Positions 8,084-30,161 are shown, counted from the first letter of the stretch. The stretch: 64,000 nt of DNA from Candidatus Bathyarchaeota archaeon (GCA_963726255.1 CAVSBL010000002.1:1248001-1312000); one strand, 5' to 3'. Program-made: numbers and translations. Notes: generated by a model not told the origin, from the sequence alone.

Positions 8084-8086
8084 GCT

Positions 8087-9778: not shown

Positions 9779-10026
9779 TCACTCAACCCATCAGAGTTAG
9801 ACTTCAGACCACTTAAGAATATGATGCGCTAGACTTTACATTTGTGGACCTTTTTTTGAAAACTACATACCAACCGGCTACTGCGGAATCCGGTCAAGGC
9901 GACTGGAGACCAAGTAGCAGTTGCTCAATCACCTCCTTTCGGTCTGCTGCTCAAATTTCCAAATTGTGAATTTGATAGCAAGATTCGGAGTCAAACTAGT
10001 TATTTTATCGTGAGTAACATCCGCGC

Positions 10027-11154
10027 ATGATAAGTATCCAAGAGAGAAATACCGACTTGCATGGAAAATCGGATGTTCAAGAGATTCTCCGCACAGAGGA
10101 TAAGAGATGGAGAGCAGTGCTCGCCAGAAATGGGAATTTCGATGGCACATTCGTGTTTGCCGTGCGGTCGACCGGGATTTATTGTAAACCATCATGCGCA
10201 GCTAGACGCCCGAACAGAGCACAAGTCGTGTTCTTTTCTGGGCCGGATGCGGCTGAGCTATCTGGTTTTCGACCATGTCGGCGTTGCCGTCCTCGGGATC
10301 TTGGATCTTCCCCTAGGGCAGTATTGATTGCGCGTGTATGCAAACACATAGAGGCCAACCTAGACACCAAGCTTAGTCTTTCAACACTCAGCGCTGAAGC
10401 GGGGATTAGTCCATACCATTTTCAACGAATCTTCAAACAAGTCGTCGGCATTTCACCGCGCCAGTATGTCGAAGCCCGTCGCTTGTCAAAGATGAAACGT
10501 TCGCTAAGGAATGGGCAAACCGTGGAGAAGGCACTCTACGGCGCTGGCTTCAGTTCAAGAAGTAGGCTCTACGAGAAAGTCCCGAATCAAATTGGCGTCA
10601 ATCCGGGGACGCTTCGCCGAGGCGGAGTTGGGTTAAGCATCGAGTACACAATCGTGGACTGCCCCCTAGGCCGTTTACTCGTGGGCGCCACGGCTCGTGG
10701 GATATGTGCTGTTTGCATGGGTGATTCAGATGCGGCAGTCGAGGCCGCGCTCACTGAAGACTACCCGTCGGCAGATATCCGCAGAAACGATAAGAGGATG
10801 CGCAGATGGGTCAACACGCTCACAAACTATCTTGGTGGCCAAGAATTCGACCTCAATTTACCAGTAGACGTTCGGGCCACCGCATTTCAATGGAGAGTCT
10901 GGAGCGAAATCAAATCTGTTCCGTACGGCAATACCACGACATACAGCAAAATCGCAAACGCCTTGGGAGAGCCCAATGCCGCCCGTGCTGTAGCTCGGGC
11001 TTGCGCGACTAATCCAGTTTCACTTGTGATCCCATGCCATCGAGTAGTTGGCGAAGATGGAGGACCGCATGGCTATCGTTGGGGGAAGAAGAGGAAGCAA
11101 GCCCTGCTGTTGCTTGAGCAGACGGCTCAACGCGAAGCTCCCAAAGCTGTCTAG
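10027..11154 (+). CDS. ada: Bifunctional Ada transcriptional activator / O6-methylguanine-DNA methyltransferase
   Basis: STGIYCKPSC..RPCRRC Zn site, AraC-type HTH, IPCHRV active site. Confidence 0.93.
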   Translation: MISIQERNTDLHGKSDVQEILRTEDKRWRAVLARNGNFDGTFVFAVRSTGIYCKPSCAARRPNRAQVVFFSGPDAAELSGFRPCRRCRPRDLGSSPRAVLIARVCKHIEANLDTKLSLSTLSAEAGISPYHFQRIFKQVVGISPRQYVEARRLSKMKRSLRNGQTVEKALYGAGFSSRSRLYEKVPNQIGVNPGTLRRGGVGLSIEYTIVDCPLGRLLVGATARGICAVCMGDSDAAVEAALTEDYPSADIRRNDKRMRRWVNTLTNYLGGQEFDLNLPVDVRATAFQWRVWSEIKSVPYGNTTTYSKIANALGEPNAARAVARACATNPVSLVIPCHRVVGEDGGPHGYRWGKKRKQALLLLEQTAQREAPKAV

Positions 11155-14646: not shown

Positions 14647-16260
14647 TTGCACGAGGTCGAGATCAGTAATCTGTCATTCACCTACGAGAACCGTACCAAG
14701 CCAGCCTTGGACGCAGTCAATCTCACAATAGATAATCGTGATTTCATTCTTCTTGCGGGTGCCAGCGGCTCGGGAAAGTCTACCTTGCTGAAGTGCATCA
14801 ATGGGTTGATTCCCCATCGCTACGTGGGCCAATACTCTGGCAATGTGAGCGTACGGGGCAAGCCGGTTCCGGAGTCCCCGTTCCTCAAACTCTCCCTGAC
14901 CGTTGGTACGGTGTTGCAAGAGGCGGACAAGCAACTCGTGTCATCGATTGTCGAAGACGACGTATCTTTCGGGCCAGGGAACTTAGCTCTACCGAGGCAC
15001 GAGGTCGAGCGCCGCGTTATGCACAGCCTCGAATCAATGGACATTCTCCAGTTGCAACGGCGGTCTATTTTTGAAATCTCGGGCGGGCAGAAGCAGAGAC
15101 TGGCCATTGCCGACGTCCTGGCAATGGAACCAGATATCTTGCTATTCGACGAACCGTTGGCCAACCTCGACTCTAATGGCGTTAAGCTCATGCAAGGCAT
15201 CTTCCGCGATTTTCACTCTTCGGGCAAAACCATAATCGTAGCTGAACATCGAACAGAGGAGGTCCTGCGAGCCAACCCAACGCGGATTGTAATAATCAAC
15301 GAAGGCCGCGTTGTAGCTGATAAGAAAGACCACGAGGTCTTAATCGAATTTGGGGACGTCATCAAGATTCCTGCTGAATACATGCTCCGCAGAAATCATT
15401 ATCTCGAAAGAGAATCCACAGTAGAGACTGTTAACACGAAGCGGCAGCAACTGGGCCAAGAGTTGATCCGAGTTGAGAACCTCAACTTCGAATATCCCGG
15501 AGGAATAAGAGCGCTTAGGAATCTAAACTTGGTCATACGCGAGGGCGAAAGGATAGCACTACTAGGTAACAATGGTGCGGGAAAGTCAACGCTTGCCCTA
15601 AGCCTCGTCGGGTTGCTGAAACCAACATCAGGCCGAGTCCTCGTGACCGGTGAAGACACACGCAATCTAACCACAGCCGAGATTGCTCGTTCAATATGCC
15701 TCGTTTTCCAAAGCCCCTTCTCAATGCTCTTCGCAAGAACGGTCCGGGATGAACTGAGCTTTGGCCCAAAGAACATCGGTGTCTCACCAGATACGATTTC
15801 GAAGATCGTCCCTGAAACCGCAAAACAATGCTCGATAAGCCATCTGCTTGATAACTCCCCTTTCGCCTCCAGTTTCGGCGAAAAGAAACGAATCTGCGTA
15901 GGTTCCGTGCTAACAATGGAACCGAAGTGCATAATATTAGACGAACCGACGGCGGGTCAAGATTTCAAGAGCTACTCCAATTTCATGAATTTCATCTGCT
16001 CGCTGAGTGAGCGAGTCAAGTCATTCGTCGTGATCACACACGACCCAGACTTAGCAATAGAGTATACGGACCGGTCCATTGTCCTGAATGATGGCGCGGT
16101 CGTGGCAGATGGCCCAACTCGCACTATGCTCGCCGACCCTTCAATTCTCACTGCGGGCGCTATACGCGAAACTTCGCTTATCGAAATCTCGCGGAAAATC
16201 ACGAGCGGTAAATCGGTGTTGACTCTCGCGGAACTCGCACGTGCCTCTGGAAAGAGCTAG
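14647..16260 (+). CDS. ECF transporter ATPase with two fused ABC domains
   Basis: GASGSGKS and GNNGAGKS; two DEP motifs. Confidence 0.92.
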   Translation: MHEVEISNLSFTYENRTKPALDAVNLTIDNRDFILLAGASGSGKSTLLKCINGLIPHRYVGQYSGNVSVRGKPVPESPFLKLSLTVGTVLQEADKQLVSSIVEDDVSFGPGNLALPRHEVERRVMHSLESMDILQLQRRSIFEISGGQKQRLAIADVLAMEPDILLFDEPLANLDSNGVKLMQGIFRDFHSSGKTIIVAEHRTEEVLRANPTRIVIINEGRVVADKKDHEVLIEFGDVIKIPAEYMLRRNHYLERESTVETVNTKRQQLGQELIRVENLNFEYPGGIRALRNLNLVIREGERIALLGNNGAGKSTLALSLVGLLKPTSGRVLVTGEDTRNLTTAEIARSICLVFQSPFSMLFARTVRDELSFGPKNIGVSPDTISKIVPETAKQCSISHLLDNSPFASSFGEKKRICVGSVLTMEPKCIILDEPTAGQDFKSYSNFMNFICSLSERVKSFVVITHDPDLAIEYTDRSIVLNDGAVVADGPTRTMLADPSILTAGAIRETSLIEISRKITSGKSVLTLAELARASGKS

Positions 16261-16303
16261 CTCTTAAATAGATAGAACGCTGCATCGCCGCGTGTGAAGA
16301 AAA

Positions 16304-16873
16304 TTGGGCATGAAGGAAATGAAAGAATCAATGTTCTCTGCTAAGCAGATCGTCGCTATGGCAGTTGGCACAGCCCTCTACGCTGCTCTAACCATACCAT
16401 TCAACACTCTACAAATCCCAGGCGTCGGTTTAGTGGCCGTAAGGCCTACGGTTGCAATTCCAATGCTCTTCGGTTTTGTCTTCGGGCCCTTTACAGGGTT
16501 CGTTTCAGGATTTCTCGGCAACATACTCTCCGACGCAGTTTCGTTCGGCGGATTCTTCTGGAACTGGGACATCGGCAACGGCTTACTCGGCGCCATTCCT
16601 GGGATCGGCTACTTCATAGTTAAACGCACAGACTGGACCAAGGCACGAGCCCTAATAGCAGCCGCAGTACTCGCAATCGTCGGATCACTAATCGGAATCG
16701 CATTTGCCGCAATGACAGATTTCGCATTCCAAATAGGCCTTAGCACAATGGACGCAGCACTCATCGAATTCTATTCTGCAGGGGCAACGGACGCAGTCAA
16801 CGGAGCAATTTTGACCCCCATTCTCCTGTACGCCTACGCAAAGGCTACAGCTGGACGGGCACGACGAGTCTAG
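16304..16873 (+). CDS. ECF transporter S component
   Basis: FGPFTGFVSGFLGNILSD; lies in the ECF operon. Confidence 0.88.
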   Translation: MGMKEMKESMFSAKQIVAMAVGTALYAALTIPFNTLQIPGVGLVAVRPTVAIPMLFGFVFGPFTGFVSGFLGNILSDAVSFGGFFWNWDIGNGLLGAIPGIGYFIVKRTDWTKARALIAAAVLAIVGSLIGIAFAAMTDFAFQIGLSTMDAALIEFYSAGATDAVNGAILTPILLYAYAKATAGRARRV

Positions 16874-16883
16874 CAGAAACTAA

Positions 16884-17693
16884 ATGATCCGGATCAAGTA
16901 CTTTCCCGGGACAACCTTCCTACACAGGTTGGACCCGAGAACAAAATTCCTATTGATTATTCTGTTCATCTTCACAGAGGTCGCGTTTCTCGACATCAGG
17001 CTCTTGCTGTTTCCCTTCGTTGCTTCTATCCTACTCTACCTCTCAGCGAGAATTCCTTTCAAAGAAGTGAAGGGAACTTGGAAATTCCTGCTGACCATCA
17101 TTGTCATCATTTCATCTATCAACGCGTTCTTCACTTTTCTTGGGTACTCTGTCCCGCACCCTCACATTATCGCGCATTTCTGGGTGTTCAAGTTCACAGT
17201 TGAAGGCATCTTCTTCGCGGTGGCCTCAATCATGCGATTTCTCTCTTTGGCCATCATTTCGCTTTGCGTGATCATGACGACAGATCCGGGCCTTTACGCT
17301 CCCGCTCTCGCAAAACTGAAACTCCCGTACAAAGGCGCCTTCGTTGTGGACCTGGCCTTACGATACTTGCCAGTCTACGTGGACGAATTGGAGACGACGA
17401 TGAATGCGCAGATGGCCCGAGGTTTCAAAGTGAAAGCCAAGGGTGGCCTATTCGCCCGCATCCTTAACACTGTTCCACTCCTAGTCCCGGTTGCAATCAA
17501 CGCAATGCTCTCCATTTACGATGTAGCAGACGCTATGGAACTGCGGGCATTCGGCGCCGAAAGGAGCCGTACATGGTACCGAACGGTCCAGTTCAAGAGA
17601 ACAGATTATGTTTCCACGGTCACCTTGTTCTCGCTGCTTCTTTTGACCATCTTCCTTCGGACCAGAATCACGACTTACTGGATTCCAGCCTGA
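16884..17693 (+). CDS. ECF transporter T component (EcfT/CbiQ)
   Basis: LHRLDPRTK, AQMARG, AMELRAF. Confidence 0.92.
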   Translation: MIRIKYFPGTTFLHRLDPRTKFLLIILFIFTEVAFLDIRLLLFPFVASILLYLSARIPFKEVKGTWKFLLTIIVIISSINAFFTFLGYSVPHPHIIAHFWVFKFTVEGIFFAVASIMRFLSLAIISLCVIMTTDPGLYAPALAKLKLPYKGAFVVDLALRYLPVYVDELETTMNAQMARGFKVKAKGGLFARILNTVPLLVPVAINAMLSIYDVADAMELRAFGAERSRTWYRTVQFKRTDYVSTVTLFSLLLLTIFLRTRITTYWIPA

Positions 17694-17795
17694 CCTATGT
17701 GCTGAACTGGCTGTTTGGTTGGAAGCAAAGCGTTATTATGAGCGCCCCTGCAGAGTCCCAGTAACTAAGCCATATGGCATAAACGGGTCGGAAAA

Positions 17796-18176
17796 ATGGC
17801 AACAGTAATGCAACCACAGCTTAACTTCACCGAGAAGGCATTGGAAAGAGCGAAAGCCATATTGCAAAAGCCCGAAAACGTTGGGAAAGCCCTGAGGGTT
17901 TTCGTTTTTGGGGGCGGTTGCGCCGGCCTGAATTATGGTATGGCTATGGGGTTCGTGAAACCGGACGATTACGTTCTTGAAAGTGATGGGTACAAGATCG
18001 TTGTTGACCCGAAGAGCATGGACCTGTTGAAGGGAATGCAGGTGGACTATTACGAGAGCATTCAATCATCCGGGTTCAAATTCAACAACCCTAACGCTAT
18101 AGCGAGTTGCGGTTGTGGATTATCATTCAAAACAGCGCAGAAGACCGAAATGGCGCAACCGAAACCGTGCCACTGA
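17796..18176 (+). CDS. HesB/IscA-family Fe-S cluster assembly protein
   Basis: GGGCAGLNY, FNNPNA..SCGCGLSF. Confidence 0.93.
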   Translation: MATVMQPQLNFTEKALERAKAILQKPENVGKALRVFVFGGGCAGLNYGMAMGFVKPDDYVLESDGYKIVVDPKSMDLLKGMQVDYYESIQSSGFKFNNPNAIASCGCGLSFKTAQKTEMAQPKPCH

Positions 18177-18665: not shown

Positions 18666-19472
18666 TTGGCAGCTGCCTTGAGCTACGTCGACGCCCACCT
18701 GCACCTAGCGGACACCGGCTACGCAGGCCGAACAGAACAAGCCATAGCTGATGCCGACAAGAACCACGTTGAATATCTTCTCTCAAACGCAGTCGATTAT
18801 GAGACGGCAATTAAAACGATAGCCTTGGCGAGGCAACATCCCTCGAAGGTTCTCGCGGCCGTAGGAGTTCATCCGTGGACAGTCACGAACACAACGAATT
18901 ATTATCTCGGAAAATTTGAACAACTCATAGACGAAAATGTTGGTTACGTGAGTGCAATTGGCGAGATAGGGCTCGACGGAAAGTACAGCAAAGATCAGAA
19001 GATCAAGGAACGCCAGTTAGAAGTTTTCAGGTTTTTCCTTAAGCTAGCAGAACGCAAACGGCTCCCAGCCGTAGTCCACTCAAGGCTGGCTGTAGATGAA
19101 GTATTGGGAACCCTTCCTGACTTTCACATCCCCAAAGTCTTGTTGCATTGGTACGATGGACCAGTGAACAAGTTTCGAGTGATCAAGGAAAGAGGTTACC
19201 TGGTATCTATTGGGCCAGCAGCACTCTACTCTCAAGCAATAAGTGAAATTGCGCGCAACGCAGACTTAGGCATGATTCTAAGCGAGACTGACGGCCCTGT
19301 AAAGTATCGCGGACCCTTCGAAGGCCGGCCTACCGAGCCTTCGTTTGTTGTAGACGTGATTCGAAAGGTAGCTGAAATCAAGAATCTTGATACCGAGGCG
19401 GTGCGAGAAGCAGTCTGGCGCAATTTTGAAACCCTCATACCGCACCTGAGCGGGCGTAGGCAGCTCCACTGA
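18666..19472 (+). CDS. tatD: TatD family nuclease
   Basis: DAHLH, GVHPW, AIGEIGLD, VHSR, ETDGP. Confidence 0.92.
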   Translation: MAAALSYVDAHLHLADTGYAGRTEQAIADADKNHVEYLLSNAVDYETAIKTIALARQHPSKVLAAVGVHPWTVTNTTNYYLGKFEQLIDENVGYVSAIGEIGLDGKYSKDQKIKERQLEVFRFFLKLAERKRLPAVVHSRLAVDEVLGTLPDFHIPKVLLHWYDGPVNKFRVIKERGYLVSIGPAALYSQAISEIARNADLGMILSETDGPVKYRGPFEGRPTEPSFVVDVIRKVAEIKNLDTEAVREAVWRNFETLIPHLSGRRQLH

Positions 19473-19599
19473 CCTTGTTCGGTCTCCAATTCTTCCTTAA
19501 CTACTCGCGGCTACAGGTAAGACCTGACGTAAACGAATTCACAGGCGTGCCGGAATCCATGTTTGGAGGAACGAGCGGCTAAGCATCGTACACTATGGT

Positions 19600-19770
19600 T
19601 CACTTAAGCGAAGCAATAATTGTAATTCGGTCATTTCCAATGTTGTGAATGCCGCAACATGTACATGGGTGATAGATGGTCCCCCAACATTTCTTATGCT
19701 CCTCACATAGGCATGCAGGACAATCACCACTCCACCCTGGGTCGAGTACCCTTGACTCCGTATCAGGCAA
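19600..19770 (-). CDS. 56-aa Cys/His-rich microprotein (absent from the ORF track)
   Basis: TTG start; MPDTESRVLDPGWSGDCPACLCEEHKKCWGTIYHPCTCCGIHNIGNDRITIIASLK; TATA box TTAAATA about 25-30 nt upstream. Confidence 0.55.
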   Translation of the reverse strand: MPDTESRVLDPGWSGDCPACLCEEHKKCWGTIYHPCTCCGIHNIGNDRITIIASLK

Positions 19771-19872
19771 GCCGGCATCACGCCCTATGGCTCTATTTAA
19801 GCACCCAAATATTGGCAGTGTAACCTAAGTTACAATAGAGAGAGGACACAACCCGTCAAGAACTCGCATTAA

Positions 19873-19915
19873 GGTTCTATCTAATTGACGGGGTCTAAAG
19901 AAGGCTGACAGAACC
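19873..19915. mobile_element. 43-bp internally deleted relic with IS6-like ends
   Basis: GGTTCTATC...TGACAGAACC flanked by CGCATTAA (19865-19872) and CGCATAAT (19916-19923). Confidence 0.55.
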
Positions 19916-19920
19916 CGCAT

Positions 19921-20980
19921 AATCAAATCAAATCGCAAGCGGGACACGGCCTCTACACGGTCGTTAATGATAATCATCTTCGTGCTTGGCGTTGCAGTTG
20001 CCCCGACCACATCTATCGTGAAGTTAAATGCAAGCATATTTGGGCTGTTGAGTTCAGCCTAAGACTGCGAGAAAAAGTCAAAGAAAATGTTTTGCTCGAA
20101 CCAGTCATAATCAACGCTTGCTTGTTCTGCAAATCAGATTTGATTTTCAAGGATGGCTTACGGCATAACAAGTTTGGTGATATTCAGAAGTGGAATTGCA
20201 GATCATGTGGAAGATACTTCACGGTCAATGTTGGCTTTGAACGAATGAAGCACAATCCACAGGGAATAACCGCCGCAATGCAACTGTACTTTTCGGGCGA
20301 GAGTCTACGGAATACGGCTCGCTCGCTTCGATTGATGGGTGTTGAAGTCAGTTATCAGACTGTCTGGAATTGGATCGCGAAGTACACAGCTTTGATGGAG
20401 AAATACCTAGCCCAAATTACACCAAAAGTTAGCGACACTTGGCGAGCCGATGAGCTATACATGAAGTTTCACGGCGACATGAAATATGTTTTCGCCATGA
20501 TGGACAATCAAACCCGATTCTGGATAGCCCAAGAAGTAGCCGACACCAAAGACACGCATGACGCACGGCACTTATTCCAAATGGCGAAAGAGAAAGCGGG
20601 AAAGAACCCGCAAATCCTCATAGCCGATGGGTTGCGCTCATACCATGATGCGTGGCTGAAAGAGTTTCGGACCAACAAGCTATCGGATAGCACCGTTCAC
20701 ATTCGCCAAATCACTTTGGCGGGTCAGCACAATAACAACAAGATGGAGCGACTTAACGGTGAGATTCGTGACCGTGAGAAGGTTACTCGTAACCTCAAGA
20801 AACCGGATAGCCCCCATCTTAACAGGTTATCAGATTTACCACAACTATGTTCGCCCACACATGGGCTTAGACGGCAAAACCCCAGCAGACGTGGCGGGAA
20901 TCAAGGTTCAGGGAGACAACAAGTGGAGAACACTCATAGAAAATGCAAGCACAAAGCGAATAATCCGCCAAATTCGATAA
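19921..20980 (+). pseudogene. IS6-like DDE transposase (SWIM + Zn ribbon), 5'-truncated and frameshifted at ~20815
   Basis: CSCPDH..CKHIWAVE, WRADE, LIADG, NNKMER. About 30 N-terminal aa missing relative to the 24035-25168 copy; extra C in a C5 run. Confidence 0.85.
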
Positions 20981-21058
20981 GAAGCCCTTCGAACTCAGAA
21001 GTCAAGAACATAGTGTGACTTGCATCGTGCATTGGCGAGAATCTTCTCGCTTAAGCTC

Positions 21059-21382
21059 TTATTGGGCGTCTGGAGCTGGGGTCAGCCCGAGCGCCTTTCT
21101 GACATCTTTCTCCGCGTCATCTGAACCTATTGTATGCGTACTCCAGGCCAAAAACAAACCAAGCGGTGTCCAGCAAAAGTCTAACTGTCTTTCAGGTTGC
21201 TGGTTTGTCTTTCTGATCCGATCAAGAATCGCATTGATTCTTCTAGTGGCCTCCTCAAGCTCAGAATCATGGAAGTCGGTAAGTCTTTCTGCGCTGGCAA
21301 GCACTGCATCATTACAGCCTGTTCCTGCTCCACAACAGTGCATCACACCCTTCTCGGTCCACCCATGTTTACTTTCTATCAT
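21059..21382 (-). CDS. Hypothetical protein (paralog of 21389-21706)
   Basis: Shares AE.LT..H..ELE.AT..INAILD..R..N..P.R.L.F..TP.G.F..W..H....DD.E..V.KALG with its neighbour. Confidence 0.75.
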   Translation of the reverse strand: MIESKHGWTEKGVMHCCGAGTGCNDAVLASAERLTDFHDSELEEATRRINAILDRIRKTNQQPERQLDFCWTPLGLFLAWSTHTIGSDDAEKDVRKALGLTPAPDAQ

Positions 21383-21388
21383 AGCGAT

Positions 21389-21706
21389 TCACTTTATCCC
21401 AAGCGCTTTATAGACCACATCCTCATCGTCATCAAAACTCACAACGTGCCGAGTCCAAACGATAAAGGGACCGTCAGGAGTTCTTATGAACGCAAGCTCG
21501 CGAGTGGGATCATGATTCTTCTGTCGCAACGTATCCAGAATTGCGTTTATCTCTTTGGTGGCTTGCTCAAGTTCAACAGGATGACACTCTGTTAAGTGCT
21601 CTGCGCCAACCAACTCGCAATAAACCTGACCGTTAACATGTGACGTAAAGCAAACTATGCCAGTCCCTTTCGGGTTGCAAGCCCAATCATAAACCGCTGT
21701 TCTCAT
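21389..21706 (-). CDS. Hypothetical protein (paralog of 21059-21382)
   Basis: Same shared motif; 6-nt gap to its partner. Confidence 0.75.
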   Translation of the reverse strand: MRTAVYDWACNPKGTGIVCFTSHVNGQVYCELVGAEHLTECHPVELEQATKEINAILDTLRQKNHDPTRELAFIRTPDGPFIVWTRHVVSFDDDEDVVYKALGIK

Positions 21707-21944
21707 GAGAACTCAGAATAAATATGACTCGACAGGATTTAACACTTTCCAGTGCATAGAGACTAAACACGATTGCCGAGATCAACCGACGAATCTTGAC
21801 AACGACAAAAACCAAACCAATCAGGCAGAACCGACGGCAACTTGACAGCACCCGCATTAGGGTTCTGTCAAACCCTAGGGAGATAATTGTCATTGTCAAA
21901 AGCGGGAGATGCCTAGGAGGCGAACGTTAACTTCAAAATCTTTC

Positions 21945-22418
21945 TCATGGGAGACTGAGTAGACCTTCGGACAACGCCCACACAATCAATGTTCCAATCC
22001 AGAGAATCGCCAAATAAGAGCAGAGCATGATTCCAAGGATAGTCTTTGACCTTATGCGAAACAAGTGAATCATGCGTTTTCCGATTATTACCGAACCTTT
22101 CTGCCTTAATGTCTGCAAATAATGTTGAGTCTTAAGTCCCATCTTGTTCTTCGTTTCGATCTCAAGCATCCGTTCTCGACAAACATCTCTTATTCCTATG
22201 CTTCTATTTACAAATAGACCCCAGCCGCCTAAGACAATACTCGATAATAGTGCTACCGCGCCCAATCGCGCAAAGCCAATGTGACTACTAAGAACGAAAC
22301 CTGTAGCCGCTAATGAGCCTCCAAACAAGAAGGACCCCCAGCTCCAGTTTTGTGTGTCTAAATGCTCGATTGTATGTTGGCACAGCTCGTATTCTTTAAG
22401 CAAGGGATTGTCTGTCAT
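21945..22418 (-). CDS. Hypothetical membrane protein (3 TM), transposon cargo
   Basis: LLKEYELC N-terminus, hydrophobic helices, ERMLEIE. Confidence 0.75.
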   Translation of the reverse strand: MTDNPLLKEYELCQHTIEHLDTQNWSWGSFLFGGSLAATGFVLSSHIGFARLGAVALLSSIVLGGWGLFVNRSIGIRDVCRERMLEIETKNKMGLKTQHYLQTLRQKGSVIIGKRMIHLFRIRSKTILGIMLCSYLAILWIGTLIVWALSEGLLSLP

Positions 22419-22424
22419 ACTGCG

Positions 22425-22589
22425 TTACCTTTCGTTTGGTGCTAGAAATCCATTTTTGTTATAGGTTGCCGTGAAGGCTTCTAGGTGGACCGTTGCAATC
22501 GGCCGACCTCCCCTGTTTCCTAAAGGATAAATCAGGATATTTTCGAGGTTCTGCAACGGGTCTTTAGCTCTGGTCACGGCAACCCGCAT
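22425..22589 (-). CDS. 54-aa hypothetical protein, transposon cargo
   Basis: ATG ORF MRVAVTRAKDPLQNLENILIYPLGNRGG... ending 6 nt before the next gene. Confidence 0.35.
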   Translation of the reverse strand: MRVAVTRAKDPLQNLENILIYPLGNRGGRPIATVHLEAFTATYNKNGFLAPNER

Positions 22590-22856
22590 TTATTCTTGAA
22601 ACTAGCTATTTTCGGCTTGCGTTCTGGGGATAACGCGTCGTTGTCGTTTGGTATGGGAAGGCGAGGCAAACCGTTTGGTATAGTGGATTTAGTCTAATTC
22701 GGATATGGGGTTTCGAAGTATGCTATGGCAAACTGGACAAGAATACGTGGGGTCATTACGCACAGCCGAACCTATGTGATATACACAACCACAGTCGCTA
22801 CATGCGACAATATTGGAACTCAATTTCCTGTGACCTTATTGCAAAAAATAGGGGGA

Positions 22857-23519
22857 TTAGTCCGTGTCCAATTCAGTGTATGTTTTCTTGTATTCTGGGT
22901 AATCTCTGTGGACGCGCTCACGGATTGTCTTCGGGTCAAGTGGGAAGATACGTTCCTTAATGCGTAAGATAGTTTCTTTGAATGGGTCAGCAACGGCAGA
23001 CAACAACGCAGTTGCGACTTGCATACCCGAAGGCGTTAGCTCAATCAGAACAGACTGATCCTTAGGATTTGACCCCCATGGCTGAAAGCTAGATGAAACC
23101 AAACCCTTAGAGCCCAGTCGGTCTTGGTCGGATTCCAAGTGTTCTGGGACTGGCCCCCGTGGGAATGCCACGAAATTGTCATGTGGAAATACTTCACCTA
23201 ATCCCTTTTTCCCAAGTTCCTTCCAGATATAGAACAATGTCTTGTTCACATGGTATCGTGTGGGTAACGAACCCTCTTTGAATACTCCTGGTTTTACGTA
23301 AAGTGTCAGTAGCGTCGCGATATCCCTCGGCTTAAGGTCGTATTTTTTCGCTAAAGCCTCATATTCCGCTAGAGATACTTGTGCGGGGTAGAGCCTTACT
23401 TTCCCAGTCTTCGCGTTCATGATGGCAGGCACATCCTTTAGATGTATAGGATTTCCTCGCCAATCCAGCGTATCCAGTTCGATTTTAGTGGGCAACCACT
23501 CATTTTCTATTGTATTCAT
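22857..23519 (-). CDS. Putative antitoxin: MqsA/YgiT-like ribbon plus Panacea (DUF4065/SocA-like) domain
   Basis: IHLKDVPAIMNAKTG (Cys-less ribbon); VNKTLFY, NFVAFPRGPVP, IELTPSG; ATGA overlap with the upstream gene. Confidence 0.6.
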   Translation of the reverse strand: MNTIENEWLPTKIELDTLDWRGNPIHLKDVPAIMNAKTGKVRLYPAQVSLAEYEALAKKYDLKPRDIATLLTLYVKPGVFKEGSLPTRYHVNKTLFYIWKELGKKGLGEVFPHDNFVAFPRGPVPEHLESDQDRLGSKGLVSSSFQPWGSNPKDQSVLIELTPSGMQVATALLSAVADPFKETILRIKERIFPLDPKTIRERVHRDYPEYKKTYTELDTD

Positions 23520-23773
23520 TTTCTCATTATCCTTTTTTGTTTCTGCGCTTCTCTCACGCCTATGATGGTAATCTTGCCTCCTTCTCGGTGGCAACTTACG
23601 CCATACCTGTTTCCATCAGGTAGCGTCACCATCTCTTGCCATTTTCCTTTAGCCTTAGGTCGTGACGCATAAGGGTTCTCTGCCATCTTATGCCGGATCT
23701 GCTCAAGTACGGCAGGAGGCAGTTTAGTAAAGACATCTTCGGCAACGATAATGTCTACATAGTTTTCTGTCAT
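23516..23773 (-). CDS. Putative RelE/MqsR-like toxin
   Basis: 85 aa, basic, RelE-like layout (FTKLPPAV...ENPY...RYGV...ITIIGV); translationally coupled to the putative antitoxin. Confidence 0.5.
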   Translation of the reverse strand: MTENYVDIIVAEDVFTKLPPAVLEQIRHKMAENPYASRPKAKGKWQEMVTLPDGNRYGVSCHREGGKITIIGVREAQKQKRIMRK

Positions 23774-24034
23774 GTGAGCCTACGCCTTGGTGTGGCGAGG
23801 CGAGGCATCCAATGTGTGTCCCTTTGCCACTGAGGAGGACTTGACTCGATTACATAGGCGTACTAATGGACATGGTTGTTCTAATTTAACTGTTACTCGT
23901 GATAATCGTGATTCGTATGTTCGAATCATAGATAGAGGCTCCGCTTCTTTCCATGAGAGAGCTGTGTGAATGAATATAAAGCACCTTTGATGGGATTTTT
24001 CGCTGGAATTTGACGGAAAGGTAGCCAAACTCGT

Positions 24035-25168
24035 CTATTTCTTGCTTCTACTAGCATTTTGGATTATCGTAAACCATTTGTCTTGTCCATTGATTTGGAT
24101 ACCTGCCTTCTCGGCTGGTGTTTTGCCATCTAACGCTTCGTGTGGGCGTATGTAGTTGTGGTAAATCTGATAGCCTCTTAGGATTGGTGTGTCCGATTTC
24201 TTTAGGCCGCGAAAGACCTTTTCTCTGTCCCTGATTTCTCCATTGAGTCGTTCCATCTTATTGTTGTGATGCGTTCCTGCGAGCGTGATATGTCGAATGT
24301 GCGTTGTGCTAGTCTCTAGCTTGTTCGTTCGGAATTCTTTGAGCCACGCATTATGATATGACCGCAAGCCATCAGTTATGAGAATCTTAGGCTTCTTCTC
24401 TGCGACTTCCTTAGCTATTTGGAATAGGTGTTGTGCATCGTGGCGTTCCTTTGAATCGGCTACTTCTTGAGCTATTAGGAATCGGGTTTGGTCGTCCATG
24501 ATTGCGAACAGATATTTCATGTCGCCCTTGATTTTCACGTATAATTCGTCTGCTCGCCATGTGCCTGAGACTTGGGGCGTGATGTTGTCTAGGTATTTCG
24601 CCATTAGAGCCGTGTATCGCTTAATCCAGTTGTAGATTGTTTGGTGCGATACTTCCACGCCTTGAAGTCGCAGAAACTTCTTGGTGTTCCGTAGGCTCTC
24701 ACCTGTGAAGTAGAGTTGAAGTGCACTCGTAACGATTTGCGGTGTGGCCTTCAATCGCTCGAAACCTAAGTTTCTCACGAAACGCTTTCTACAACCTTTG
24801 CATGTGAACCGTTGAATGTCCCCGTTCTTGTTGTGACGTAAGCCATCTCGCACTAGGGCTTGCGAACCGCAGTAGAGGCATGTGGTTAGGTCGAGTGGTT
24901 TGATTACTACTTGGTTGCTGACTTCGGCTCGTAATGCTTGCGAGAATTCGACAGCCCAAATATGCTTACACTTAACCTCACGATAGATATGGTCGGGGCA
25001 GGAACAACGCCAAACACGCCCACGTCTCACAACGGAATAGAGGCCGTTGCCTGATTGTGAGGATACTTGGTAGGTTCGGTCATCTAGGCGTTTCACTTGG
25101 TTGCCTAGTTTAACGATAGCTTGAGCTTTCATCACGCGACTTTCGCTCAACGGTTGTTCGGTTCGCAT
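24035..25168 (-). CDS. IS6/IS240-like DDE transposase with SWIM and Zn-ribbon N-terminus
   Basis: CSCPDH..CKH, CLYC..CKGC, HTH (GESLR..VSHQTIYNWI), DDE in WRADE / LITDG / NNKMER, YNYIRPHEAL. Confidence 0.92.
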   Translation of the reverse strand: MRTEQPLSESRVMKAQAIVKLGNQVKRLDDRTYQVSSQSGNGLYSVVRRGRVWRCSCPDHIYREVKCKHIWAVEFSQALRAEVSNQVVIKPLDLTTCLYCGSQALVRDGLRHNKNGDIQRFTCKGCRKRFVRNLGFERLKATPQIVTSALQLYFTGESLRNTKKFLRLQGVEVSHQTIYNWIKRYTALMAKYLDNITPQVSGTWRADELYVKIKGDMKYLFAIMDDQTRFLIAQEVADSKERHDAQHLFQIAKEVAEKKPKILITDGLRSYHNAWLKEFRTNKLETSTTHIRHITLAGTHHNNKMERLNGEIRDREKVFRGLKKSDTPILRGYQIYHNYIRPHEALDGKTPAEKAGIQINGQDKWFTIIQNASRSKK

Positions 25169-25203
25169 CTCAATCCCTACCGCAATATTGCAGCACTGTG
25201 AGG

Positions 25204-25401
25204 ATGATGGTGAGAAAGGAGATACTCGGAAGTTCGGAGCGGAAAATCATTGAGGCATACGTTAGTGGAGAACGATTGAAGGGCTATACCGCAGTTCTAT
25301 TTCGAATCCGGCACATCGGATTGAGGGAAATCATTCAGGGTTGCGAACACGACCTAGCACTGTTGAAAAGACTCGCTAAGTTGGAATCAGAACGTACGTG
25401 A
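25204..25401 (+). CDS. Small hypothetical protein divergent from the transposase
   Basis: About 65-aa helical basic ORF starting 35 bp from the transposase ATG. Confidence 0.55.
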   Translation: MMVRKEILGSSERKIIEAYVSGERLKGYTAVLFRIRHIGLREIIQGCEHDLALLKRLAKLESERT

Positions 25402-26478
25402 CCCTCGTTTTACCGCGACAAGAGGCAAAAACTCGAATAGCATTGCTATTCCAACAAAGATTAGCGCAGATTCAGTAACATCTGGACTAATCTTGCCGAA
25501 CCAACCGAGAATGCCAATAAGAACCAGAATAAACGCTGTACCAATGATTATTGCCTTATGACGCGTAGGTAGTTTTGCTATTGCTAGAATCTTCGATTCT
25601 GTACAGTCCAAAGCGTTCTCATATGCAACCGCCAAAGCTGGCATTAGTTGCGTTTTCCTTAGCTTTATCTCATCTACCTTGAAGCCCTGAAAACATTGTT
25701 TGATGTTCCGCGCATCAAGTTCATGTATAGCTCGTGCCCTTGTAGTGGGGGCAATTCCGTATTCGGCCAATTCGTAAGATACGATTACCACTTGGGTCAA
25801 TTCTCGTTTTTCTGAATCTGGGCAAACCACAACAAACAAGTGCTGTTCTCCTGCACCAGTACGAAATAGCCAAATGTTGTGGCGTACCTCCTCCTGCTCC
25901 TCGATGCCCAGTGTGTATTGAAAATCGGCATCAATGAACTTGCCAAGCACATTGGTGTACTTCGCATGCACGAGGAATTGTTTGACTAACAAATCATCTT
26001 TAGTACCAAGCAAACCCACTAGACTCCTAGCTATTGGGGAAAGTACGGAATAGGCAACGACAAGTAGCAAGAACATTGTTACAGCTAACAAAATTCCATA
26101 CAGTGAAACAAAAGAATCCCAATTTAGTACAACCAAGAATCCGCGCCTGTAAAGTAGGTCGAGAATTAGTACCGCTATGATTGGAGTTACTAGAACTTGA
26201 ATCTGCGTGGGAGATACGAATCTCTTCGGCTGAAAGGTTAGAGACGCACCTACGGAATATGCGACGACGAAGAGATTGTAGGCCAACAGTAGTATGAGCG
26301 TTGAGGTCAAATCGGCTCGGAATACTTCTGTTACGAACCAGAGTCCGATGGCGCTGCAAGCTGTGGCTCCAAGAATTACTGCTGTAAACTGAGGCAAGAT
26401 TCCCTGTTTCTGCAATCTTGACTGGTATGAAGCCAAGGATTTTCCCGACCTTAGTCCAGCAATTTGCAAACTTAACAT
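25387..26478 (-). CDS. Hypothetical multi-pass membrane protein, transposon cargo
   Basis: 363 aa; about 4 N-terminal and 2 C-terminal TM around a soluble domain. Confidence 0.75.
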   Translation of the reverse strand: MLSLQIAGLRSGKSLASYQSRLQKQGILPQFTAVILGATACSAIGLWFVTEVFRADLTSTLILLLAYNLFVVAYSVGASLTFQPKRFVSPTQIQVLVTPIIAVLILDLLYRRGFLVVLNWDSFVSLYGILLAVTMFLLLVVAYSVLSPIARSLVGLLGTKDDLLVKQFLVHAKYTNVLGKFIDADFQYTLGIEEQEEVRHNIWLFRTGAGEQHLFVVVCPDSEKRELTQVVIVSYELAEYGIAPTTRARAIHELDARNIKQCFQGFKVDEIKLRKTQLMPALAVAYENALDCTESKILAIAKLPTRHKAIIIGTAFILVLIGILGWFGKISPDVTESALIFVGIAMLFEFLPLVAVKRGSRTF

Positions 26479-26619
26479 TTGGCCTCAACCGAGAGTAAGC
26501 GCCATCTCCCGCATTTGACGGATGATTTTGTCTCCCGTCGATTTGACAGAACCCGCATTAGCAAAGTTTATGTTGAATGCGCCTCGCTGTGTGCTCAGTT
26601 TCAACTAAGGTGGCTACGT

Positions 26620-26871
26620 TTGGGGAAGGTACGCACCGACACTGTGAAGCGAGTTTCGAGAGAGGTACTTAGAAGGTTCCCTGAACGTTTCGCCGGCGAC
26701 TGGGAATCGGACAAGCAGGCCGTCAACGACCTAGTCTCGACACAGTCCAAAAGGTTGCGTAACAGAATAGCGGGCTACGTCACTAGGCTAAAGGTTGTGG
26801 AAGCGGAACGCGCAGCCGCTACTGAGGTTGCTGCTGAGGCTCCTGAAGCAGAGGAACCCAGCGAAGAGTGA
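26620..26871 (+). CDS. rps17e: 30S ribosomal protein S17e
   Basis: MGKVRTDTVKR...SKRLRNRIAGYVT; TTG start with AAGGTGG SD; TATA-like AAAGTTTATG at ~26563. Confidence 0.93.
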   Translation: MGKVRTDTVKRVSREVLRRFPERFAGDWESDKQAVNDLVSTQSKRLRNRIAGYVTRLKVVEAERAAATEVAAEAPEAEEPSEE

Positions 26872-26997
26872 AGCGTTCCTCTGTAGTCTAGTTCTTTGCG
26901 GGAAACACTAAAAGGGCAGTCCATGCTCTCCCGAACGAAAATTCGAACTGCGCCGTAATAGGCGTGGACAAAACTCGCTGGAAAGGGTTGAGACATA

Positions 26998-28905
26998 TTG
27001 CACATCGTAGTCTGTGTGAAGCATGTACCCGATGCTACGGACATTCGTTTTGACCCAATTACGCTTAACCTGATCCGTGAGGGTGTCCCTTCAATCGTTA
27101 ATCCCTTCTGCCTCAATGCCATCGAAGAAGCAATTCGGCTAAGGGAAAAGTTTGGGGGCAAAATCACCGCGGTATCCATGGGGCCGCTACAAGCGCAGGA
27201 AGGCTTACGCGAAGCCCTCGCCATGGGTGCTGATCGCGCAGTGATGGTTTCGGATAGGGAGATGGCGGGCGCAGACACCTTGGCGACCTCCTATACGCTC
27301 TGGAGAAGCATTGCAACGATAGCGGAAACTGAGCCCTTTGACCTAATCCTAAGTGGAAAGGTCGCCATCGATGGCGAAACAGGCCAAGTTCCACCAGGCC
27401 TTGCTGTAAGATTCAACATTCCCATCATTTCGAACGTCACGAAAATAGACCAAGTCGACATCAAATCCCGAACGATAGTTGCAAAGCATAGGTTCGACGA
27501 CGGTATTGAGACTGTTCAGGCAAGATTCCCGGCCGTTCTCACGATTACTGAAGAAGCAAACAAGCCAAGGAAATTCACGATTGAAGGCATGCTGAACGCG
27601 AAGAGAGCAAGAATCGAAATTTGGGATAAGCAGGCGATAAATGCTGATCCCAATCTTTTGGGCCTCAAGGGTTCTCCTACCATCGTGAAGAAAGTCTTCC
27701 CACCTCCCGGACGGAAACAGGGGGAGGTTTTCGATGGGACTAGGGACCCGCACGCCGCGGTGAAATGGTTAGTTCAGAACCTCTTCCAAGTTCATGCTTT
27801 CGGGCCAGCGCCTCCAAAGGCCGCCGAAGCGTTGCCGAAGTCCCCGAACGAGAAGGCGGCGATTGAAGACGCGGGAAAGTACGGGGAGGTTTGGGTTTTC
27901 GTTGAACATTTTCACGGAAAACCGGCAGCAGTCTCATGGGAACTCTTGGGGGAGGGAAGACGGCTCGCAGGGATCTACGGAACTAAGCTCGGGGCACTGA
28001 TAATTGGAAACCGCGTGGATCACCTAGCGAAGGAATCATTTGTTCACGGCGCCGACAGGGCCTATCTGGTTGAAGATGAACGGCTTGAGAATTATCGCAC
28101 GCAACCGTACGCTGTTGCCATGGAAGAAGCCGTGAGGAAATTCAAGCCCGAGGCCCTGCTAGTAGGCGGAACCATTAGGGGCCGAGACTTAGCGGGCTCG
28201 GCAGCGACCTTTCTGGAAACAGGCCTAATTGCGGATTGTACCGCTTTGGACGTTGATATGGAAACTGGCACGTTCATGGGCACGAGGCCTGACTACGGCG
28301 GCAACCTGATGTCCACCATAATCTGCCCCAAGAATAGGCCTACGATGGCCAGTGTCCGCCCACGTGTAATGAAGAGCGTACCACCAGAGCAGAATAGGGA
28401 CGGCGAGATAGCCCATGTTGACTTGAACCTCAAAGACACTGACGTAAACACGGACATCTTGGAGTTCGCCCCGATCGAGAAAGTAGACGTCCGCCTAGAA
28501 GATGCTCAGGTTATCGTCTCTGGGGGAAGAGGGCTGGGGGCAGGTAAGAACTTCCAATTAATCGAGGAACTCGCAAAGACTCTCCAAGCCCAAGTCGGAG
28601 CCTCAAGGGCAGCAGTACGGGCTGGTTGGATAAGCCCAGAGCACCAAGTTGGCCAAACAGGGTTCACGGTCAGACCACGGTTGTACATCGCAGTTGGCAT
28701 TTCAGGAGCCATCCAACACATTGTAGGCATAATGAACGCGGACTACATCGTCGCGATAAACCGAGACCCCGAAGCACCCATCTTCAAGATGGCGAATTTC
28801 GGCATCGTTGGCGACCTGTTCAAGGTAGTCCCAGCCTTGATTGAAGAGCTGAAGAATGTACACCTAGCTGAGTTAGCACCATGGCAGAGAAGTTCGACTC
28901 GGTAG
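26998..28905 (+). CDS. Fused electron transfer flavoprotein beta+alpha (FixA-FixB)
   Basis: IVVCVKHVPD, GADTLATS, DGETGQV, then SGGRGLG, QVGQTG, GISGAIQH. Confidence 0.92.
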   Translation: MHIVVCVKHVPDATDIRFDPITLNLIREGVPSIVNPFCLNAIEEAIRLREKFGGKITAVSMGPLQAQEGLREALAMGADRAVMVSDREMAGADTLATSYTLWRSIATIAETEPFDLILSGKVAIDGETGQVPPGLAVRFNIPIISNVTKIDQVDIKSRTIVAKHRFDDGIETVQARFPAVLTITEEANKPRKFTIEGMLNAKRARIEIWDKQAINADPNLLGLKGSPTIVKKVFPPPGRKQGEVFDGTRDPHAAVKWLVQNLFQVHAFGPAPPKAAEALPKSPNEKAAIEDAGKYGEVWVFVEHFHGKPAAVSWELLGEGRRLAGIYGTKLGALIIGNRVDHLAKESFVHGADRAYLVEDERLENYRTQPYAVAMEEAVRKFKPEALLVGGTIRGRDLAGSAATFLETGLIADCTALDVDMETGTFMGTRPDYGGNLMSTIICPKNRPTMASVRPRVMKSVPPEQNRDGEIAHVDLNLKDTDVNTDILEFAPIEKVDVRLEDAQVIVSGGRGLGAGKNFQLIEELAKTLQAQVGASRAAVRAGWISPEHQVGQTGFTVRPRLYIAVGISGAIQHIVGIMNADYIVAINRDPEAPIFKMANFGIVGDLFKVVPALIEELKNVHLAELAPWQRSSTR

Positions 28906-30161
28906 TCGTAGGCGCAGGCCCTGCTGGAATCGCGGCAGCATACACGATGGCCAAAGCCGGGTTGAACGTTCTCGTTCTCGAAAAGGGTGAGAAACCTGGC
29001 GCCAAAAACATGTTTGGCGGAATTATCTTCAGACATCACACTGAGAAGCTGGCCCCGGAATTCTGGAAGACAGCACCGGTCGAGCGGCACGTGGTCGAAT
29101 ACCAATACTGGTTTCTATCAAAGGATTCGCACCTACTTCTAAGCCACAGGAACCAAAAGTTCAACAGCCAATACAATGCCTTCACGGTCCACCGTGCAAA
29201 GTTTGACCCCTGGTTCGCGAAACTAGCAGAGGACGCGGGAGCAGTCATCATCAACAGGACCACTGTAGACGACGTTCTGAAGGAAAATGGAAAAATCATC
29301 GGCGTCAAGACCGAACGCGGAGACATTCTAGCGGACGTTGTAATTGCGGCCGACGGCGTCAATTCGATGCTTTCCAAACAGGCGGGCCTAAGGGAAGAAC
29401 TACCTCAGGATGCCGTGGTTTTGGCCCTGAAAGAGGTCATCGCTGTTCCGAAACAAAAGATCGAGGAACGCTTCAACCTCGGACCGGATGAGGGCATCGC
29501 AGCGTTACTTGTCGGCTGGGGGCCCGGAATGCATGCAGGGTTCATGTACACTAACCGAGACACAATCTCACTTGGCATAGCCATCAGCTTGCGTGACCTG
29601 GACAAGAGCAAGCAACGCCCGAACGTTTTGTTTGAACAATTCAAGAGTCACCCATCAATAGCCCCGCTAATCAAAGATGGGGAACTGAAAGAATACTCAG
29701 CCCACTTAATCCCCGAAGGCGGATACGATTACGTAGCCAACACCTACACGGACGGCATGCTCGTCGTGGGCGACGCTGCGATGTTAGTCAACGCCGTCAA
29801 CTGGGAAGGCACAAACCTAGCCATGACTTCTGGAATCATTGCAGGAGAAACCGTCATAGAAGCCAAGAAGAAAAACGACTTCTCATCGAGAACACTCGCC
29901 AAGTACAGGGAACGTTTGGAAGAAAGCTTCGTTCTGAGGGATTTGAAGAAATATCGGGGGATCCCGAAGTTCTTCTCGTCCAACCCCGAGTTCTTCACGT
30001 TATATCCGGATACGCTCAACGAACTGTTCTACATGTGGCACGTGGTCGACGACGAGTTTAAGGCGGATAGGATCAAACGGATGAAGGCTACGCTCTTCAA
30101 ACGGCGTTCAAGAGTCGCCCTCGTGAGAGATTTCTACCACCTGTGGAGGTTGTTCTCATGA
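28881..30161 (+). CDS. fixC: FixC-like FAD oxidoreductase
   Basis: VGAGPAG, GAKNMFGG, EYSAHLIPEGG, VGDAA. Confidence 0.88.
   Translation: MAEKFDSVVVGAGPAGIAAAYTMAKAGLNVLVLEKGEKPGAKNMFGGIIFRHHTEKLAPEFWKTAPVERHVVEYQYWFLSKDSHLLLSHRNQKFNSQYNAFTVHRAKFDPWFAKLAEDAGAVIINRTTVDDVLKENGKIIGVKTERGDILADVVIAADGVNSMLSKQAGLREELPQDAVVLALKEVIAVPKQKIEERFNLGPDEGIAALLVGWGPGMHAGFMYTNRDTISLGIAISLRDLDKSKQRPNVLFEQFKSHPSIAPLIKDGELKEYSAHLIPEGGYDYVANTYTDGMLVVGDAAMLVNAVNWEGTNLAMTSGIIAGETVIEAKKKNDFSSRTLAKYRERLEESFVLRDLKKYRGIPKFFSSNPEFFTLYPDTLNELFYMWHVVDDEFKADRIKRMKATLFKRRSRVALVRDFYHLWRLFS

Follow-up and report, generated by a model that had tools for sequence, protein, structure and literature searches.

Some mobile elements insert at a fixed distance from a feature that they leave intact: Tn7 does so at attTn7 through TnsD, as do CRISPR-associated transposons, and the result is a harmless, reusable site with tandem arrays. 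In eukaryotes, Ty3 is held at its sites by TFIIIB, of which TBP and the TFIIB-like Brf1 are parts, and Drosophila P elements have hot spots at heat-shock promoters. The locus analysed here is a stack of IS6-type transposons directly in front of the ribosomal-protein gene rps17e, in a 64,000-nucleotide stretch of DNA from Candidatus Bathyarchaeota archaeon (GCA_963726255.1 CAVSBL010000002.1:1248001-1312000); the whole of this stretch is referred to as the window. The family to which the stacked elements belong very probably inserts about 5 bp upstream of a TATA box and leaves the promoter intact, so that the same site is hit again; its target would be a position rather than a particular word.

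IS6 members are 700-890 bp long, have one gene, produce 8-bp repeats and have ends of the form GG...cTGTt...caaa; in the sections of the IS6 review drawn on here, a passenger gene is given for one member, ISDsp3, a zinc-finger N-terminus is reported for the Clostridial clade h, and promoters are unmentioned as targets, hybrid promoter formation being the exception (PMC7986276). Harmer and Hall, in the portion of their review drawn on here, placed archaeal 'IS6' elements outside the family (PMC6807381). The archaeal elements resemble IS6 and IS26 in having a DDE transposase that reaches the IS6 profile, terminal inverted repeats (TIRs) that start with GG and contain cTGTt/caaa, and an 8-bp target-site duplication (TSD). 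They differ in their size of 1.4-7.2 kb and their passenger genes, which depart from the small single-gene format, in the SWIM finger and zinc ribbon at the transposase N-terminus, and in a precise, promoter-linked target.

Window positions 19865-26561 consist of a 43-bp relic, a left-truncated 1.9-kb element (element B) and an intact 4,693-bp element (element A). Direct reading and pattern search located IS6-type ends (GGTTCTGTCAA...) on all three, with copies of the octamer CGCATTAG as separators. Element A (21861-26553) has perfect 12-bp TIRs, with exact GGTTCTGTCAAA at 21861-21872 (+ strand) and 26542-26553 (- strand), and its two TSD copies agree at 8/8 positions, being exact CGCATTAG at 21853-21860 (left, third octamer copy of the stack) and 26554-26561 (right, fourth copy, which remains with the promoter). 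Copies of GGTTCTGTCAAA with two mismatches form both ends of the relic (19873-19915; GGTTCTATCTAA ... GCTGACAGAACC, empty between) at 19873-19884 (+) and 19904-19915 (-), and the right end of element B (19924-21852, + strand; left end deleted) at 21841-21852 (-). The first octamer copy, CGCATTAA at 19865-19872, has one change and would be the oldest TSD copy; the second, CGCATAAT at 19916-19923, found by direct reading, has two; all four are on the + strand. At the B/A border two ends face each other, TTGACAGCACC, CGCATTAG and GGTTCTGTCAAA being contiguous in that order, and error-free contigs from public runs cross both the B|A and the A|promoter junctions. The fourth octamer directly precedes the rps17e core promoter (26562-26573, +), which comprises the spacer CAAAG (5 bp, A-rich and resembling a TFB-recognition element, BRE) and the TATA-like TTTATGT, and which is proposed as the target determinant. 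The distance from the rps17e start (TTG; 26620-26871, +; Pfam Ribosomal_S17e, 3e-16 over 26620-26868) to the octamer-CAAAG-TTTATGT element is 54 nt, the box lying upstream of the start.

A sequence-only reading of the window had described this stack with its ends, octamers, facing junction, relic, truncated B and intact A, had called the two transposases homologous but diverged, and had placed the last octamer directly before the TATA-like element of rps17e; all of this was confirmed, the transposase of B being frameshifted and 63% identical to that of A. It had counted four parts in the stack, of which the relic, B and A were borne out. The fourth, at 19851-19864, which might be the decayed right end of an element older still, is weak: by eye, and unscored, about half of its positions agree with the end consensus, and two relatives (G015 and G008) have a clearer ACAGTTCC end at the corresponding place. 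At up to two mismatches the TIR matched 13 times in the window against 6.7 expected, 13 being reached by 2 of 100 shuffles, and at up to one mismatch the octamer matched 46 times against 42.6 expected. Neither the TIR nor the octamer alone is enriched in the window; the signal is their arrangement.

The same reading had taken the octamer, CGCATTA(G/A), as a fixed target. If the transposase recognised this word, the rps17e site would be a dedicated attachment site, as might be suggested by the four octamers in the window and by the location of copies at least 75% identical to TnpA, the transposase of element A, which lie at rps17e in G015, G021, G008, G019 and 8 metagenome loci. The one exception is L124, an 81% copy in a stack with the octamer AGAAATAG, with no tatD or etf match within 13 kb. 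Family copies were collected with element finders that demanded a TIR pair and an 8-bp direct repeat, TSDs of other lengths being outside their scope; the TIR and TSD searches gave 76 elements in the pooled genome set and 38 in metagenome contigs (37 after one false nested pair was dropped). Across these copies dozens of unrelated octamers occur as exact or 7/8 flanking repeats, among them TTTCTTGA, TGTAACAT, CAACGGGT, AACTTAAC, GTGAAGGA, TGAGTTCC, TTACTTTG, TGGAGGCA, ATCGTGGT and CATCGGCC, with 50 more such elements in named metagenome-assembled genomes, and transposase relatives of 60-72% identity are flanked by unrelated octamers. Even at the rps17e promoter the flanks vary: in G015 the proximal element lies between two copies of CGCATCAG and the older junctions retain CGCATTAG, G017 has CTGATTAG on both sides, and metagenome copies have the near-identical pairs GGAATTAG/CGAATTAG and CTAATTAG/CGAATTAG. 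The TSD is uninformative in a logo of 39 non-redundant targets (information content of at most 0.38 bit per position), and CGCATTAG also occurs at window position 3979 without any element. Because other family copies have unrelated TSDs, the octamer was rejected as the target; judged by these sequences it is an ordinary 8-bp TSD that follows the local sequence, at rps17e as elsewhere, and recognition of a fixed word is scarcely credible.

The insertion sites have in common the position of a TATA-like box, which starts exactly 5 bp past the TSD, on one side only. The box was defined as YTTAWAW at 6/7 positions or better and sought in 110 unique non-element flanks from the pooled genomes, the expectation being taken from random positions in the same loci. 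It began at offset 5 in 47 of the 110 outer flanks against a locus-matched expectation of 1.39, at offset 3 in 13, and at any other offset within 0-29 in at most 7. Of the 67 entries counted by site, 53 show the box at an offset between 2 and 6, with 42 of them at exactly 5. The metagenome set, scored by the unchanged rule, replicated this: offset 5 accounts for 16 of 45 non-redundant flanks, and no other offset within 0-24 for more than 3; 30 of 36 metagenome elements have the box on exactly one side and 0 of 36 on both. For comparison, TTTAW at offsets 2-5 on either side of random 8-mers in the window's own genome (G000) is found at 0.47% of all positions and, where long open frames are excluded, at 1.0%.

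The logo of the 39 targets reads c-A-A-n-n in the spacer (A at 67% at +2 and +3), followed by TTTATAT; this is the arrangement of the archaeal BRE/TATA consensus, 'AAAnnTTTATATA'. Aligned host-side flanks show octamer, 5 bp and a TTTATAT-like box in this order on one side at nearly all sites, among them CGCATTAG|caaag|TTTATG at rps17e, TTTCTTGA|caagc|TTTATG in G026, CAACGGGT|gaggt|TTTATATG in G002, GGAACTCA|catag|TTTATATG in G036, TTTCAATG|gtgcc|TTTATATG in G006 and CGCGCCCG|aaatt|TTTATATA in G017. According to the labels in the records, the hosts include Bathyarchaeia (the clade of the window), Nitrosopumilus, Nitrosocosmicus, Nitrososphaeraceae, Atabeyarchaeia, Methanoregula and Thermoplasmata; three loci carry bacterial labels, for which mis-binning is possible.

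Such a pattern might arise without any targeting, if insertion were near-random or AT-preferring and selection in gene-dense genomes left few survivors, with stacks formed by descent and recombination. In favour of this, long open frames make up about 88% of the window's own genome, which leaves few neutral places, just survivors are visible, and genes for ribosomal proteins and chaperones, the hot spots, might withstand an insertion upstream. Selection would, however, permit any position upstream of the BRE, yet a single offset dominates (47 against at most 7 at most others; 16 against at most 3), and elements that differ between sister genomes occupy exactly the same 8 bp. This explanation is accordingly regarded as very unlikely, and targeting of a promoter-defined position is preferred.

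The sister genomes in question, G000 and G021, are 94-95% identical up to window position 19883 and from 26540; between these points just transposase-level similarity of 72-83% is found, and element A is missing from G021. Since different elements lie inside these near-identical flanks, the two lineages gained elements at the same 8 bp after their split. A co-occurring G021-like strain, about 94% identical, was present in runs X1 and X2 (freshwater sediment), at higher depth in X2; its stack content differs, with a joint 19883>21845 (window 19400-19900, 26540-27000). An empty site was found at another locus. A 523-bp miniature inverted-repeat transposable element (MITE) of the family at G000 C2:896495-897017 is missing in G021, where flanks 94-95% identical join at a single TGGAGGCA, beside the same TATAAAAAA; a single octamer is what the sequence-only reading had expected of an empty site in the tatD-rps17e interval. 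For a 614-bp MITE (C2:1995203-1995816) no orthologous empty site was found in 4 relatives.

The exact position in front of rps17e has been re-used across the genus, an element end plus 8 bp lying directly before CAAAGTTTATG in at least 8 of 18 relatives' loci. The suggestion of a target-selective DDE family with passenger genes thus stands. CAAAGTTTATGTTG is conserved at rps17e in relatives, including G010, in which the promoter stands without an element end. The further suggestion of a safe harbour beside a ribosomal-protein promoter holds in that the site is used, but it is one among many promoters and not exclusive. By Pfam, the genes behind the boxes include Ribosomal_S17e, S8e, L38e, thermosome, HSP20, Peptidase_M48 (HtpX-like) and Aminotran_5 (class V), and the recurrent target promoters are those of rps17e, rps8e, rpl38e, thermosome, hsp20 and htpX. 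Octamers at the thermosome site are unrelated between species (TTTCGAAT, CGGGCGCG, GTGAAGGA, GCTGGGCC, TGCCTGAA), rps8e-type promoters (caattCTTATATG) in metagenome contigs have nine elements of nine sizes, and the three larger transposase fragments of G000 lie at thermosome, hsp20 and htpX promoters.

Stacking recurs elsewhere in the family, each stack having its own octamer: GTGAAGGA five times in G018:C5, AACTTAAC three times in G011:C4, CGGGCGCG twice in G017:C2, and TTACGTAA, TGCCGCGA, TGATAAAG, ATATTCAA and AGAAATAG in further stacks. Among 23 genomes of the genus, 8 contain junctions of the form ACAGNNCC-N8-GGNNCTGT, 14 in total, and the backwards control gave 1. With the spacer left free from 0 to 20 there were 44 places (control total 37), 14 of them at spacer 8, followed by spacer 3 (7) and spacer 12 (4). 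The ACAGNNCC-N3-GGNNCTGT junctions, at 7 places in the 23 genomes, may be due to chance or to small palindromes. An orthologous end-N8-end junction with the octamer TTCTATAG, at G000 C2:1334621-1334644 and G021:C109:16400-16423, is probably an old stack.

Junctions of this kind would also arise if transposase bound to a resident end directed insertion into the adjoining 8 bp, as for IS30, IS911 and IS26, with the link to promoters secondary. The sharp peak at spacer 8, the excess of 14 over 1 and the frequency of stacks agree with such self-targeting, and integration next to a resident IS26 is described in the consulted part of the IS6 review (PMC7986276). Against it, elements that stand alone within host DNA, which make up most of the 30 of 36, already lie 5 bp from a TATA-like box, and the G000 MITE went into an element-free site. 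In addition, wherever the order could be read, in 7 stacks, decay increases away from the promoter and in none toward it, which insertion beside either end would not predict. Many elements have non-element host DNA on both sides, and the first insertion is therefore independent of a resident end. As the source of the promoter link, self-targeting is considered unlikely, although it may add to the reuse of a site.

The arrays also invite comparison with those built by IS26. As in IS26 translocatable-unit arrays, at least as treated in the review sections cited, IS6-type elements with cargo accumulate next to a resident copy (PMC7986276). IS26 arrays, however, share IS copies, gain no new TSD and need identical ISs, whereas in the archaeal arrays every element is bounded by two ends of its own and by a new copy of the local 8 bp, neighbours are only about 60% identical in protein, and the first insertion takes place without a resident copy. 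An integron-like array had also been proposed. The likeness lies in an ordered cargo array at one site, newest at the entry point, and it does not extend further: Pfam named no recombinase among the transposase and 7 other open reading frames (ORFs) of A and B, no integrase, attI or attC-like site was seen, and every set of cargo genes is enclosed by a separate TIR pair. Unlike integron cassettes, the units are whole transposons bounded by TIR and TSD, in either orientation, with no common promoter driving the cargo. A target that can be used again yields such an array as a side effect.

In 7 of 9 stacks the transposases are less intact the farther they lie from the promoter, the other two being ambiguous (G021, and L079, which contains an inverted duplication), and the octamers of the window, from the promoter outward, have 0, 0, 2 and 1 changes. 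Promoter-distal relics occur in other stacks too, with 38 bp in G015 and 71 bp in G021. The stack is probably chronological: A would be the youngest insertion, B an older one, and the 43-bp relic with its mutated octamers the oldest. The L079 stack, at hsp20 (G018:C4:826000-845999), contains a long perfect inverted duplication (approximately 8041-10446 and 15458-17854) with two identical transposase copies in opposite orientation. Such a duplication is the product expected of intramolecular replicative transposition of the IS6 type and gives one hint of a replicative mode.

Thermosome, hsp20 and htpX promoters have an operator-like palindrome, T(G/T)TTAC-N4-6-GTAACA, about 5 nt past the TATA box. 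It was counted at 4 places in G000 (C2:327925, C2:1057082, C2:1167944 and C2:2158473) and at 21 in all sequence examined, including loci L079, L080, L083, L086, L088, L091, L092 and L097. It looks like the operator of a heat-shock regulon of Bathyarchaeia and, we presume, resembles the Phr site of Pyrococcus. The operator, as TGTTAC-N5-GTAACA, or the TATA region was also considered as a TIR-like pseudo-end. This idea, a speculation, was rejected: the start lies 3-4 bp or about 17 bp from the cut, which does not fit the geometry, and promoters without the operator are used as well.

Several points weigh against a position set by the promoter. The YTTAWAW box and the offsets were picked after the first cases, the metagenome set being scored later by the same rule. 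The box is absent from offsets 2-6 in fourteen of the 67 genome entries and from offset 5 in 6 of 36 metagenome elements; several of the 14 show a less good match at the usual offset, such as gaaca|GATATAT and taaag|TATAATA. Among the counted cases, the flank of L012 proved to be an element end that had not been flagged, and the boxes of L143, L183 and L090 are poor. Offsets of 2, 3, 4 and 6 are also seen, some of which can, on our reading, be placed in a shifted TATATA register. The word 'promoter' itself denotes a sequence match together with the gene behind the box. In favour of promoters, an ORF of at least 50 aa begins 21-64 nt past the box in 22 of 34 flanks, but the ORF-behind-box comparison of the two sides barely discriminates (24/34 against 26/48). 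That copies at least 75% identical to TnpA lie nearly all at rps17e could reflect local re-insertion next to the parent, vertical descent, or lineage-specific homing or preference. Survivorship may also contribute, hot spots then reflecting tolerance as much as preference. Finally, no empty-site allele of element A was seen in the contigs of 4 DNA runs, and mobility was not observed.

The proposed mechanism of promoter-positioned insertion is an 8-bp staggered cut whose promoter-side edge falls 5 bp upstream of the archaeal TATA box, where the BRE begins on its upstream side; the transposase would capture target DNA in such a way that the stagger ends there. Duplication leaves the octamer, BRE, TATA box and gene unchanged on the promoter side; the gene thus keeps its promoter and the site stays a valid target. 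Later insertions, by the same or another family member, would then enter between the promoter and the previous element, re-duplicate the local octamer and push older copies outward. Whether the transposase reads BRE/TATA DNA, for instance with its zinc-binding N-terminus, or docks on promoter-bound TBP/TFB is about evenly balanced. The more specific proposal, that it docks on the pre-initiation complex of TBP and TFB on TATA/BRE and cuts at the upstream edge, as an archaeal DNA-transposon counterpart of the tethering of Ty3 by TFIIIB, is tentative. Ribosomal-protein and heat-shock promoters recur among the targets, which hints at occupancy but could equally reflect best-consensus boxes or tolerance of upstream insertions. 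G000 has four TBP paralogues by Pfam TBP (C2:121123-121635, 438939-439454, 997432-997944 and 1773719-1774228) and two TFB paralogues by Pfam TFIIB (C2:522845-523396 and 734526-735077), which matter if promoter classes are marked by differing factor pairs.

As with Ty3, Ty1 and TRE5-A at Pol III genes and Tf1 at Pol II promoters, the transcription initiation region positions the insertion, and a few highly used genes accumulate insertions upstream. The fixed position relative to an initiation-factor site that characterises the tethered mode is found here (offset 5 in 47/110 and 16/45 flanks). Unlike the Ty and Tf1 retrotransposons or the P element, all eukaryotic, the family consists of archaeal DDE DNA transposons. 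Its likeness to Tn7 lies in fixed-distance insertion beside a preserved feature and in a reusable site. Tn7, however, uses dedicated selectors (TnsC/D/E or Cas), and the archaeal target is a class of sites, promoters, rather than one gene end. No TnsC-type or target-selector gene was found in A or B, nor any conserved large accessory gene in the 76 elements, and the TnpA core resembles TnsB at the level of the general DDE fold only.

TnpA (24035-25168, - strand) has 377 aa and an IS6-type DDE core by Pfam and NCBIfam. It scored 61.7 bits against Pfam DDE_Tnp_IS240 (cut-off 27), barely passed NCBIfam transpos_IS6 (125.2 bits, cut-off 125, residues 136-339) and fell marginally below the cut-off for Pfam SWIM (19.5 bits against 19.6). 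Family transposases are about 370 aa long with an N-terminal SWIM finger and zinc ribbon; in an alignment of 53 relatives, the SWIM motif CxCx9CxH (C54, C56, C66, H68) and the ribbon CxxC...CxxC (C96, C99, C122, C125) are invariant. Helices are predicted between residues 142 and 192, where no tool named a domain, and are read as a putative DNA-binding helix-turn-helix. The AlphaFold2 model (pLDDT 80.4) matched retroviral integrase, IstA, ISCth4 and TnsB cores in Foldseek, generic DDE matches only, and a profile search of solved structures with TnpA gave no sequence match. The pseudogene in element B (approximately 19924-20980) starts at residue 32-34 or so of TnpA and has a frameshift near 20800; tblastn aligned it at 63% identity over residues 34-362, plus 328-373 in another frame. 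G000 has one intact transposase, its other 5 places being fragments with ends mostly too decayed for a TSD test, and family matches occur in 20 of the 22 other genomes of the genus searched, with copies frequently clustered. The TIRs of relatives are GGTTCTGTTAAG, GGCTCTGTCAAG and similar, with GGTAACGTTACC in one sub-lineage.

The 76 elements range from 1,419 to 7,161 bp (median about 3.3 kb), and the only recurrent genes besides the transposase are two unrelated kinds of about 60-70 aa, divergent from and 20-140 bp upstream of it, present in 12 and 7 of the 76. The first kind is the 67-aa gene of element A (25198-25401, +), 30 bp upstream of tnpA, with same-position homologues in 12 of 76 clustered elements; the second is exemplified by L080:10938-11150 (-), and by eye it has an AbrB-like SLRxTVP...GDKLxW motif. 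Both may be regulators or cofactors. Element A has 5 ORFs besides its transposase, the others being 21945-22418 (157 aa), 22857-23594 (245 aa) and 23516-23773 (85 aa) in the left arm (21945-23773, -) and 25387-26478 (-) in the right arm, a 363-aa ORF from the ORF list that is membrane-protein-like by eye. The cargo of element B is two paralogous small ORFs (21059-21382 and 21389-21706, -); these tandem frames of about 105 aa share, by eye, a C..HxxELEEAT..INAILD motif. None of the ORFs of A and B apart from the transposases, the 67-aa gene included, matched a Pfam, NCBIfam or PADLOC family significantly.

The variable interval is bordered on the left by a tatD-like gene (18666-19472, +; Pfam TatD_DNase, 6.4e-56), and the order tatD, gap, rps17e, etf is kept in 18 relatives' loci. 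By eye, the 635-aa ORF that follows rps17e (26998-28905, +) resembles a fusion of both electron-transfer-flavoprotein subunits, and the next ORF (28881-30161) is FAD-dependent oxidoreductase-like. Scans of 17-29 kb for tRNAs and Rfam families gave 0 tRNAs and one sub-threshold viral pseudoknot match, and the stack is therefore no tRNA-linked island.

Full-text literature searches returned no report of transposon targeting set by a promoter, although supplementary tables may list such elements. Promoter targeting is likewise unmentioned in the sections consulted of the IS6 reviews (PMC7986276, PMC6807381), of papers on Thaumarchaeota (PMC6563490) and Atabeyarchaeia (PMC11529989), and of the aloposon paper (PMC8813620). 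If the reading given here is true, a core promoter element would determine, to the base pair, where this family of prokaryotic DNA transposons inserts. Such targeting would explain how transposons live in genomes that are about 90% coding without breaking genes, and how ordered stacks of diverse elements arise; the initiation-region targeting of yeast and Dictyostelium retrotransposons would then have an archaeal counterpart. The elements could serve as promoter markers in uncultured archaea, including ammonia oxidisers, Bathyarchaeia and Asgard archaea, and as a candidate tool for harmless, position-defined insertion, with stacks as a datable record of successive invasions. If docking on the initiation complex were also true, the preference for ribosomal-protein and heat-shock genes would reflect factor occupancy, and the family would report naturally on which promoters are in use and provide archaea of several phyla with a ready-made tool for safe-harbour insertion.

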